This document shows, one piece after another, positions 15,513-29,509 of a stretch of 48,788 nt of DNA (position 1 is its first letter; each line of letters opens with the position of its first letter). The notes under the pieces are model-generated. The model saw only the letters and a program-made list of their open reading frames with translations, did no database searches and was not told where the DNA came from. The DNA is from Lophium mytilinum (lineage: Eukaryota). A program made the position numbers and the translations under genes. The stretch covers positions 312,179-360,966 of the forward strand of contig MU004184.1 of the NCBI GenBank assembly GCA_010093605.1, read 5' to 3'.

Positions 15513-15615
15513 GCCTTCGGGCATTTGGTCAATTTGAAACAACACAGAGAAGATTAGCATGGCCCCTGCACTAAGGATGACACGCTTTATCAAAGAGTAG
15601 CTTCAAAATTTTTTT
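15513..15615 (+). ncRNA. U6: U6 spliceosomal snRNA, intronless copy
   Basis: GCC-UUCG-GGC 5' hairpin, CATTTGGTCAATTTGAAAC (A box), ACAGAGAAGATTAGCATGGCCCCTGCACTAAGGATGACACGC core (ACAGAGA box, AGC triad, ISL), T7 Pol III terminator at 15609-15615. Confidence 0.98.
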
Positions 15616-22359: not shown

Positions 22360-22881
22360 CTATCTCCAAAACACTGCCGCAACTCCAGCGAGAACCGTAC
22401 CCAAAATCACGGCCAGGTATTCATAGCGCATCCCCCGATCCATTCCCACCACGCGCGCCTCTCCGTTCCACCAGGTGGGCAGAAGACCTTGCTGTTTGTC
22501 CTTTCCCGCCTCCCAAGCCTTCAGTATCTCATTCACCGCCACCATCAGCTCATCGTCCTCTTGTGGCATGCCGCGGGACATCGGCTGCAGGAACTGGATA
22601 GAGGCCGCATCGCCGGTGTCATTGAGCATCGTAAGCGTGCAGTACGGGCAGGTGCTGTGGCCCAGATCCATCCAGCGTTGTAGGCAAAAGAGGCCCAGGT
22701 CGTGGCCACATTGGGGCCGCACGAGGATGTCGAGATCGAGGTCGAGATGGTCGGCATTGTAGGCGTTCTTAGCGAGCTCGGCGGCGAGGAGGATGCGGTC
22801 GGTCGGGTGGAGGGCGAATGGGTTCTTGCAGATGGGGCAGCTAGACGTAGCGTCTACTGTTGTGAATAGGTGTTCGGACAT
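22360..22881 (-). CDS. RING-finger protein (173 aa) with C-terminal transmembrane anchor; putative E3 ubiquitin ligase
   Basis: CPIC...CGHDLGLFCLQRW...TCPYC RING pattern; hydrophobic tail YEYLAVILGTVLAGVAAVFWR*; intact single-exon ORF. Confidence 0.8.
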   Translation of the reverse strand: MSEHLFTTVDATSSCPICKNPFALHPTDRILLAAELAKNAYNADHLDLDLDILVRPQCGHDLGLFCLQRWMDLGHSTCPYCTLTMLNDTGDAASIQFLQPMSRGMPQEDDELMVAVNEILKAWEAGKDKQQGLLPTWWNGEARVVGMDRGMRYEYLAVILGTVLAGVAAVFWR

Positions 22882-23225
22882 TTTGGTGGTGGTTGAATTA
22901 GGACGGGCGGGATTGGGATGGGTGACGAGGAGGAGTTGGTCCGGTGATGATTTTATGAGGGCGAGTGGTCTTTGAGTAGCAAAGGGGTGCGAGACAGCTT
23001 ACACTTTCACTCAAGGACAAGCCAGTTTCACTACGCCGTGGCCCCAAGGGCGTACACAATGTTGCCGCATTGTGAATGGGAACAGTCAGGAGGCAGGCGC
23101 TTTGCAGGGGGCTAGCTGATACCTCAATAATATCTGTACGAATCACAGTATACGAGTACAGGGTTAGTTTTGGAAACATAGACAATGCAATTGTCTTCGT
23201 CCGTGGTCGTTTTGGTCGGAAAACG

Positions 23226-23556: not shown

Positions 23557-24777
23557 ATTTCTGCATGCTGGCACTTGTGTTCATTGTCAACATTGTTGCC
23601 TTGAACGCCCGACTTTGGTGAACATGCGGATCTGCATTCTATCTTTTCATGCCACCGCTTTCCCTGTATCCTACACCTCGTTTCTGCTTTGCGTTCTACC
23701 TGCATTCCTCTTGCATCTCATGCCCTACGTCACCGTGGGCATGTTGCGTGACTAACTGCATCTTTATCTCCCGCTCAAGGGGTGATGTTGCATTCGACTG
23801 ATGAATGGAATTGTATTTGATCATTCGTGACGTAGAGAATACCGTGGTTCATTGGCAGAGCTGACGGTAGTGGAAGAACGCAAGGCCTAGAGATTATTCT
23901 GAGGTGCTTCACGATCCATGCGACCTTATCGTCCCACAAGCAGAACTAGGAAACAATTTCAAGTGGCGGCGAAGGCTTTGACAAACACTGGATCGAGGAT
24001 AAATTGTAAGCGACTAAGACATGGCTTTAAATGAGCTCAATATGGATGTCTTGACAAGCCGGGCCACACCGTCAGAGTTCCCTAACTATTTGGTCTCTTT
24101 GTACATCCCGTACCATCACCCCTAGCGTATCCGTGGCAATCAAAACCTCCGTACCTATAGAATGTGTCGCATGTATAGCCAAGAAGCCGCTGGTGCAAGA
24201 TGAATGTTCAAAATTAAGAACGCCGAGCTCAAGAAAGAAGAGTAGCCTCCTGCGAAGCGTCCAGACTCCCGGCAGATAAGCGTGAGGCTAAGTCCTCGCT
24301 ATGACTACAGTGATGTATCGAAACATAGTAGAAAGTGTGGCAGTACATCTTACCTTTCATTGCCATAGTGAAGAGCGTAGATATCACTGTAGCACGCAAG
24401 TAAGATGACCGGTAGCACTCGTGTGAGGGTATTCTGGGGCTGAAAGTTCGAACAACATTTCTAGAGTTCCGTACTAGCAATTGGGTGCAAGTATAGGCCT
24501 ACCAGCTTGGCGAAAGGGGTGCACATGCAGGGAGACAGGAAGCTTCCCGGACTAGTCACGTGCGAAGTGGGAAGACAGCGCTGGCCGCGTCACTTCACCC
24601 TTCCCTTCCTGTTCCACGACTTTCCGCCAGATTCCACGCCGCCGCCTGTGCCCCTCACCTGCAACCCTCAAGTAAACTGCTCCGTTAAACGGTCTAGCGC
24701 TGATGAGTAAGCGCCAAGACTCTCAAATATTCTGCAGTATATCAACCCGCCCGCCCCCCGACCTTCCTTCCTTTCTC

Positions 24778-25024
24778 AGCTCTCTTGTAAGTTTCCTCCC
24801 CTCTCCCCTCCTTCCAATGTCCATCATCGCTAACAATCTTTGCAGTGCCTTTTGGCTTAGATCAAGTGTAGTATCGGTTCTTCTCAGTTTAATCGCTGGG
24901 ACAGCCCCTACGGGGGTTCCTTCTGATTATCCCATTTTTGGAAACTGTTCCTGGGCCGCTGGGCTTGCCTATGTCCGGGGACACAGTGTCGCTCGTATTG
25001 CACTGCCTCGGGCCGACGCGAACA
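24778..25024 (+). ncRNA. U2: U2 spliceosomal snRNA interrupted by a 59-nt spliceosomal intron (24787-24845); ends approximate
   Basis: Spliced 5' end AGCTCTCTT|TGCCTTTTGGCTTAGATCAAGTGTAGTATC; branch-recognition GTAGTA 24868-24873; stem IIa TCTCAG-TTTAATCG-CTGGGA; stem IIb AGCCCC-TACG-GGGGTT; Sm site ATTTTTG 24934-24940; stem III; loop IV ATTGCAC. Intron GTAAGT...GCTAAC(24829)...CAG. Confidence 0.96.
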
Positions 25025-26199
25025 TTCTTTGTTCAACATCTTTTTCATTGATCTGCTCAGCTTGTCTGGGTCGTCGAAGAAGAAGCATTCGTCCTTTGGT
25101 TCGCCTTTGGCTATGAAGTTCGGAATAATTGCTGGTGTTTGGTGAGCTAGTCAGCGTTTGTTGTTGTTGCTTCCCCTCGCTGGTGCTCCCCGCCATCTCT
25201 TGTTGCTGATCCTGATCGCGACAGACCTTTCTCTGAGCTGCTTCAACATGCTGTGATGCTTCATCGTCATTGCCGTGAGTGCCTTAAGTATTGTGGTACT
25301 GCTGAATGGCGTCCGCACCGATCAAGCTCGCCGCCTCTTCTTCAGCGTCAACAACGTTGACGCGTCTCAACGCGATACGTCACAGCTCACGCGCCGCAGC
25401 TCCGTATTCCGCCTCACCAGAGTTCGAGTCCCTGGTAAGGCACTCAGCCATTCAGCACCATGCAACGGTAATGCGGTCACTCCCCATGACTTTGGCCACG
25501 ACAAGGCTAACACTAGACTTTACCCTCGTAGACCCAAAGCTCTAACATCCTGCGCCGCCGGAAGCTAGAGCTGGAAGTTGAAAACCTCTCCGGACGTTGT
25601 CAGTCCACCAACGACCCAGCACGACGGGAAGCAGTGCGACCGCCTTGGGGCCTTCCCCAGTCGATATGTTGAAGCCCTCCTTTTAAACACTCTGATCAAT
25701 CTCGAGGCCACCGATACTCTTCTCTGCATCCGTATCATCTTTGCCCTCATTCATCCACCCAAGGTGCCGCTGAAGACCTTGCGAAATGCCCTCCTACCGG
25801 GCTTCTCCGCTCCGATGCCAGGTTCGGAGCCGAACCTGTCCAATCGGAGGTCAAAATTCTAGACCCCATCCTCCTACCCTAGAAATTCGAGCATCGTACC
25901 TATCGCCTGGCCTTCTTTCCCGACAGCGACTCCACCTTGAACGCGCGACCGCGCAGATGGCGCGTAGGACCGCCAAAAGAAGAAAAATCTGCGCCCTCCA
26001 AGAGCGAAGAGGCCCACACCATATAGAATGTGTTTGAGGTGGAGCAGCACCTCACCTGTTAGATGAAGGAAGCTCCAGGTTAGTAGCTAATTTTCATTTT
26101 CTCATCCTTTTGCCTCCCGATCGCTCCCACGACCATTCGGTTGCGCGCTTTGGGCTATATCTAACATGGGTATTCGGTGAACGCAGCGATATGAACGTC

Positions 26200-29356: not shown

Positions 29357-29509
29357 GCCTTCGGGCATTTGGTCAATTTGAAACAACACAGAGAAGGTAT
29401 GTATCACCCCCCCTAACACTCAGCTTCAAAACTAATATCTTTCAGATTAGCATGGCCCCTGCACTAAGGATGACACGCTTTATCAAAGAGTAGCTTCAAA
29501 AAATTTTTT
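29357..29509 (+). ncRNA. U6: U6 spliceosomal snRNA interrupted by a 49-nt spliceosomal intron (29397-29445)
   Basis: Exons identical to copy A except the 3' A-run (6 vs 4). Intron GTATGT...ACTAAT(29431)...CAG inserted at ACAGAGAAG|ATTAGC. T6 terminator 29504-29509. Confidence 0.98.

Follow-up and report, generated by a model that had tools for sequence, protein, structure and literature searches.

A spliceosomal-type intron within the U6-pairing 5' end of a U2 snRNA gene and most of its paralogues in Lophium mytilinum

The nearest precedent for the gene described here is the U2 gene of Rhodotorula hasegawae, which contains an mRNA-type intron (Takahashi et al. 1993, as cited in the available parts of PMC5855946, PMC2396436 and PMC2586383). 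As in the present genome, that intron is short and spliceosomal, lies in a fungal U2 gene and occurs beside introns in other snRNA genes. However, Rhodotorula is a basidiomycete, whereas the present host is an ascomycete in which the intron occupies a helix II site after a 9-nt exon and belongs to a multigene family. The available text of PMC5855946 lists introns in U6, U2, U5 and U1 and states that the determinants of their insertion are unknown. Fungal U6 introns (S. pombe; Canzler et al. 2016, via the available text of PMC5855946) have canonical signals, unconserved interiors and paralogues with and without introns, like the introns studied here, and up to 20 U6 copies per genome have been reported (PMC5855946). 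In contrast to U6, which is a Pol III transcript with introns near the catalytic core, the present U2 is a Pol II gene with its intron in the 5' helix II. Helix II, at the U2 5' end, lies away from the catalytic nucleotides. Introns of the fungal U3 snoRNA, as described in the available text of PMC5832005, are likewise short and close to the 5' end of a small RNA that is transcribed independently; they are common in Pezizomycotina, and the 5' half of the first stem-loop contains 133 of the 138. Because U3 does not belong to the spliceosome, it involves no self-dependence, and the introns of U3 paralogues are very similar, with no diverged families, unlike those of U2 here. The initial annotation had held that U2 introns are reported much less often than U6 introns. 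U2 introns are indeed rarely reported: in the available text of PMC5832005, U3 and U6 are the only RNAs said to be interrupted often. Finally, human variant snRNAs (available parts of PMC8457000) form expanded families with changes in branch-reading and U6-pairing sequences, as here. The variants of the present genome differ in that their promoters and 3' hairpins are intact and that the 5' half of some is wholly new.

We analyzed a 48,788-nucleotide stretch of DNA (the window) from L. mytilinum, which we take to belong to the Mytilinidiales, Dothideomycetes. One permease exon in the window has 100% identity to a protein from L. mytilinum, and the next of the named matches is from Lepidopterella. 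The body of a U2 gene in it matches Rfam RF00004 at 24836-25027 with 123.3 bits, against a gathering cut-off of 46, and the Rfam alignment contains the branch-reading sequence, the Sm site and stem-loops IIa, III and IV. Both the promoter and the downstream hairpin are intact at this copy. The gene is composed of the following parts.

24694..24708, + strand: PSE-like upstream element common to the U1, U2 and U4 genes here, with a putative function
24738..24743, + strand: TATA-like box, 40 nt 5' of exon 1
24778..24786, + strand: U2 exon 1, 9 nt, giving 9 of the 11 helix II pairs; predicted start site
24787..24845, + strand: GT-AG intron of spliceosomal type, 59 nt, with donor GTAAGT, branch site 24829-24834 and acceptor CAG
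24846..25027, + strand: U2 exon 2 (Rfam RF00004; 3' end approximate)
Within exon 2, + strand: upper stem I, helix I region, branch-reading sequence 24868-24873, stem IIa/IIb
Within exon 2, continued, + strand: Sm site 24934-24941, stem-loops III and IV
25040..25085, + strand: downstream hairpin, a likely RNase III (Pac1/Rnt1-type) cleavage and termination signal

The surroundings are poor in recognisable proteins, with a Pfam match in 3 of 19 long frames of the window; the match nearest to U2 is a weak RING at 22363-22998 on the minus strand. We rejected the possibility that 24778-24850 codes for protein, as the overlapping frames, judged without Pfam, have no evident family.

The exact PSE-like element occurs once in the window. 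Its core lies 79-84 nt 5' of exon 1 in seven of the nine U2 copies of the genome (84 nt in the window copy) and is also found 5' of many U1 and U4 copies. A TATA-like box, defined by a loose motif list chosen by eye, precedes exon 1 by 35-41 nt in all nine U2 copies; among nine intronless U1 copies it lies 39 nt ahead of the start in six and 43 nt in one, and none was found in two. The agreement in spacing between U2 and intronless U1 therefore places the start at exon 1 and not 3' of the intron. The 9-mer of exon 1 is identical in 9/9 genome copies and in 4/4 metagenome contigs, the bases 5' of it vary, and a sample of 400,000 strand-bases from elsewhere in the genome contains it twice. Thus, the very short first exon of about 9-12 nt that had been proposed is retained, with a length that is most likely 9 nt.

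The insert has the form of a major-class intron: a GT donor, an RCTRAY branch site 6-36 nt from a YAG acceptor and a length usual in fungi (consensus from the available text of PMC5832005), with GCTAAC at 24829-24834 and 24833 as the branch A. The donor is predicted to pair with the 5' end of the genome's U1 over 6 bp. A pattern of exon end, intron and exon start had one match in the window and 0 in 100 shuffles, a weak control given that the pattern was composed after the site had been seen. A sample of 200 kb from elsewhere in the genome contains 46 intron-like motifs versus 16 ± 4 in shuffles, with a median of 56 nt and GTAAGT as the commonest donor (12/46). Because both its length and its donor are typical of these motifs, the window insert is an ordinary intron in form. 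Its interior has a pyrimidine fraction of 0.86 versus 0.54 ± 0.11, a value reached by 1 of the 46 controls, and pure drift does not explain this excess. The U2 gene is not covered in sequencing run X1, whose contigs extend into the flanks of other U6 loci; the run therefore looks like DNA and speaks neither for nor against splicing. Judged from its sequence, the insert is very probably a spliced intron. The central claim of the initial annotation, that an intron of spliceosomal type interrupts the U6-pairing 5' end of a U2 gene, is supported by the Rfam body, the canonical signals and the 5' end restored on joining the exons.

The first 13 nt of the joined exons are the same as those of L005, an intronless copy in this genome. 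By motif search, the uninterrupted exon junction occurs at least 30 times in the available part of supplement 1 of PMC2396436, at least 22 of these being Pezizomycotina U2 entries from 10 species; the acceptor plus exon 2 motif has 0 occurrences in the same part of that supplement. Nucleotides 1-12 of spliced U2 are predicted to form 11 bp with the window U6 at 15513-15612 (-12.7 kcal/mol), versus 9 bp (-9.8 kcal/mol) for unspliced U2 and -4.6 for exon 2 alone, and U2-U6 helix I is predicted to have 7 bp. As 9 U6 pairs precede the intron and 2 come after it, the intron lies inside helix II; it also falls in the internal loop of stem I. The earlier placement at the helix II/stem I junction thus identified the right region and is refined to these two elements. 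It had also been suggested that standard ncRNA annotation would truncate the gene, and it does place the 5' end wrongly: the Rfam match begins inside the intron, takes its last 10 nt as the 5' end and misses exon 1. Therefore, surveys that rely on Rfam-style annotation undercount such introns.

Position 24876 is G in the window copy and T in six of the other eight U2 copies, L008 also having G; therefore, the window copy is not fully canonical in sequence. The G may be left over from a second intron that has been lost, or it may simply be a substitution. The same base lies directly 5' of the second-intron site of L006-L008.

Nine U2 genes were detected in the genome by Rfam. An intron of 53-117 nt follows the same 9-nt exon in eight of them, and three (L006-L008) have a second intron directly 3' of the branch-reading region. 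The U2 intron of Rhodotorula is reportedly located directly 3' of the branch-reading sequence; it would then resemble these second introns and not the window intron. GT, RCTRAY and YAG were present in 14/14 U2 introns examined (11 first introns, including 3 from the metagenome, and 3 second introns), a count that is partly circular, as patterns requiring these signals helped to delimit the introns. The branch A lies 13 nt from the intron end in 10 of 11 first introns. Interiors resemble that of the window intron at shuffle level in 10/10 comparisons (p 0.09-0.93), and six canonical copies share 86-95% identity with the window copy in their exons. Two copies have weak donors, L001 with GTTCGT and L003 with GTAAAT (U1 duplex -1.0 and -1.6). 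A U2 tree of 12 genes has one well-supported inner branch out of nine and does not decide the order of intron gain and loss.

L005 (G000:C4:740153-740364) is the sole intronless full-length U2 and the most divergent (branch 0.72). It keeps the branch-reading sequence, the TATA-like box and the hairpin, and its stem I loop matches Coccidioides U2 entries in the available part of the PMC2396436 supplement.

The same arrangement was detected outside this genome. A scan of metagenome contigs for the acceptor and exon 2, which has no denominator and is blind to genes changed in that stretch, returned four contigs (L107-L110), all with the same exon 1 and a 60-nt intron. L107 and L110 are 97% identical, with 88% for L109 and 71-77% for L108. 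The U2 genes of these contigs lie 5' of a translin gene, like copy L001 here; an RPL22-like gene adjoining L109 was not found within 8 kb around L001, and the synteny is thus one-sided. The metagenome translin exons match a Pleopsidium protein at 78/84 residues and this genome at 71/84 (range 61-78, 120 matches); therefore, the contigs are probably not from Mytilinidiales. The proteins of L107-L110 are closer to Acarosporales, Geoglossum and Helotiales than to this genome. The survey of Pezizomycotina U2 genes that the initial annotation had called for thus divides: the site is empty in the at least 22 published entries and filled in four contigs of another ascomycete lineage. A distant ascomycete may have inherited the intron from the same ancestor. 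The intronless entries in the available part of the PMC2396436 supplement are from Eurotiomycetes and Sordariomycetes, so a single old gain requires several losses; both that scenario and repeated gain at one site fit the data.

The available portions of PMC2396436 contain no ascomycete U2 intron of this kind, and we found no published report of a U2 intron at this helix II site in the literature searched. That is limited evidence, because most subscription papers lie outside the literature searched. U2 introns as such were already known from Rhodotorula.

Taken together, we propose the following model. RNA polymerase II would start at about 24778 and produce a capped pre-U2, from which the major spliceosome would remove the 59-nt intron constitutively and probably co-transcriptionally, perhaps helped by the nearby cap. 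The cap-binding complex assists splicing at a cap-proximal donor. The available reference list of PMC2586383 includes a title on this complex and such donors. RNase III would cut the downstream hairpin, Sm proteins would load on the mature RNA, and splicing would bring helix II back to its spacing from stem I/helix I. The intron would be old, predating the multiplication of the U2 genes of this genome and copied by gene duplication. It would persist because only its exact removal is tolerated, so that selection would keep the three signals while the rest drifts. We assign a probability of about 0.72 to this whole explanation, in which the window gene would be a working U2 snRNA gene with a processed product of about 190 nt and the presumed old, near-neutral intron, spread by gene duplication, is likelier than autoregulation. 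The model builds on directly observed gene anatomy, splice signals, conservation pattern, predicted pairing and distribution.

Introns are also present in other snRNA genes of this genome, namely in 4 of the 15 U1 loci read (16 matches), 6/6 U4 and 7/21 U6 loci and in none of the three U5 loci. Those of U1 follow nt 6 (4/15), those of U2 nt 9 (8/9) and those of U4 nt 9 or 13 (6/6), and the first introns of Pol II snRNA genes accordingly lie 6-13 nt from the predicted start. The window itself has two U6 genes (15513-15612 and 29357-29505), of which one lacks an intron and the other has a 49-nt GT-AG intron directly after the ACAGAGA box region, an intron that recurs in the 7 of 21 genome U6 matches. 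The U5 genes L053-L055 have no Pol II hairpin in the 60 nt read, and L054 resembles the U6 genes in its TATA-like box and in a B-box-like motif located downstream; these features suggest that U5 may be transcribed by Pol III.

The shared location of the first introns bears on the best-surviving alternative, which we consider improbable: that the cap-proximal intron is kept as a control feature of Pol II snRNA genes, raising or coupling snRNA output by early recruitment of U1 and the cap complex, through transcription or stability. The position of the first introns of these genes, 6-13 nt from the start, would fit, although 11/15 U1 loci and L005 are intronless and yet keep promoter and hairpin features, and the second introns of U2 and the introns of U6 lie further in. 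Similarly, C/U-rich interiors (mean 0.75 versus 0.54 in controls) and a 16-nt core common to the L008 U2 intron and the U4 introns L059/L061 would speak for such a function, but the best cross-family match of the window intron is a run of 10 pyrimidines (against a small control set of 12 and 46 motifs), and many Pezizomycotina in the available published entries have no intron.

Two proposals on where the introns came from were rejected. A common origin of the window intron with the U1, U4 and U6 introns is undetectable, 10 pyrimidines again being the best match between families. An introner or mobile intron family would have near-identical introns at unrelated sites, and none was found; matches to the window intron do not exceed those 10 pyrimidines, and the 16-nt sharing is confined to L008 and the two U4 introns.

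Since the U2 gene is split by an ordinary intron, most of the U2 in the cell can probably be produced only with the help of U2 itself. The initial annotation suggested possible autoregulation of the U2 level, an idea already raised in print for U6 paralogues (available text of PMC5855946). In such a scheme, splicing stress would lower U2 from eight copies and intronless L005 would form a splicing-independent supply. It is true that every copy with a near-canonical body has the intron and that L005, divergent as it is, keeps its gene features. However, no conserved regulatory sequence or fold was found in the intron, its interiors being at shuffle level, and the signals of the window copy are of strong consensus, as for constitutive splicing. 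Pairing of the branch site with the branch-reading sequence of the same molecule comprised at least one expected pair in only 4 of 11 genes, and masking of the branch site in cis was rejected as inconsistent. Moreover, the loop would be one of positive feedback, which would not by itself hold a level steady, and the intron habit is shared by U1, U4 and U6 genes. Autoregulation is thus disfavoured, and we regard it as quite unlikely.

Least probable of all is that the insert is not removed, the RNA starting 3' of it or keeping it as a helix II/stem I loop, or the copy being silent: exon 1 alone still pairs with U6 (9 bp, -9.8), exon 2 holds all other U2 elements and some among nine or more U2 copies may be silent, but the signals and their spacing are kept while interiors diverged, the TATA-like box lies 40 nt from exon 1 but 108 nt from exon 2, and exon 1 is invariant in 13/13 genes, with promoter and hairpin intact in the window.

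Constitutive removal of an old intron remains our preferred account of the window gene, whose 3' hairpin also leads to a wider set of genes. The pattern of this hairpin has 60 genome matches at 54 distinct sites and 0 in a reversed control, and two-sided changes occur in 7/18 predicted hairpin pairs across 19 sites, the outer pairs being those that the search pattern itself prescribes. Hairpins 3' of snRNA genes are targets of Pac1 in S. pombe (available text of PMC8421224), and by analogy the window hairpin is likely an RNase III cleavage and termination signal. About 20 hairpin-bearing genes have no Rfam family, and an Rfam search of 27 unassigned loci gave weak U1/U2 matches and one U4 only. 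The snRNA-type genes as a whole cluster in a few regions (G000 C4, ~49-463 kb; C1, ~55-532 kb; C23, C19 and C16). Among them, L087, L090, L096 and L106 form a four-gene family of longer genes with snRNA-type promoter features, the hairpin, two shared blocks and no Rfam match; L068, L100, L103, L073 and L071 are short, carry the hairpin and Sm-like sites and could be placed in no Rfam family; L065, L076 and L099 bear the hairpin and several apparent introns; and in L095, L098 and L102 the hairpin lies 3' of tandem repeats with no obvious snRNA body.

Variants of known snRNAs are also present. L009 (G000:C4:273682-273848) is a U2 variant that keeps exon 1 and the intron, has an altered helix Ia and lacks stem IIb. 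Its branch-reading sequence favours GCUAAU-type over ACUAAC-type branch sites (-7.3 to -7.8 versus -0.5 kcal/mol), whereas the window copy has the reverse preference, ACUAAC-type over GCUAAU-type. A pattern search for stem-loop IV returned 12 genome sites, the three additional ones (L062-L064) being U2-derived genes that bear the snRNA hairpin and have a new 5' half. The U2 3' half is preserved in L062 and L063; L064 preserves stem-loop IV, and its nt 11 is followed by an intron-like insert of 53 nt. The U6 copies L027, L029, L030 and L034 have altered ACAGAGA boxes. L067, L077, L084, L097, L050-L052 and L072 are U1-derived or U1-like with changed or extended 5' ends, and L072 has an intron after nt 11; such U1-like variants could read other donor sites. 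We raise, as a tentative and rather unlikely proposal, that spliceosomal RNAs have undergone a hitherto undescribed radiation in this fungus, of which the intron is one sign, and that some variants have been retuned to other splice signals.

These results extend U2 introns from one basidiomycete yeast to ascomycetes. The 5'-end sites of the U1, U2 and U4 introns fit poorly with reverse splicing at the catalytic centre as the origin of snRNA introns; the available part of PMC11146597 discusses reverse splicing and not snRNA genes. With eight paralogues and a distant orthologous locus, gain, loss and function of the intron become testable. The possible snRNA radiation, with about 54 hairpin genes and variants such as L009 recognized by sequence, may be a more surprising lead than the intron itself. 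If it is real, the cell would build either specialised spliceosomes or Sm-class guide RNAs of a new sort, and the balance among the variants could be set by cap-proximal introns.
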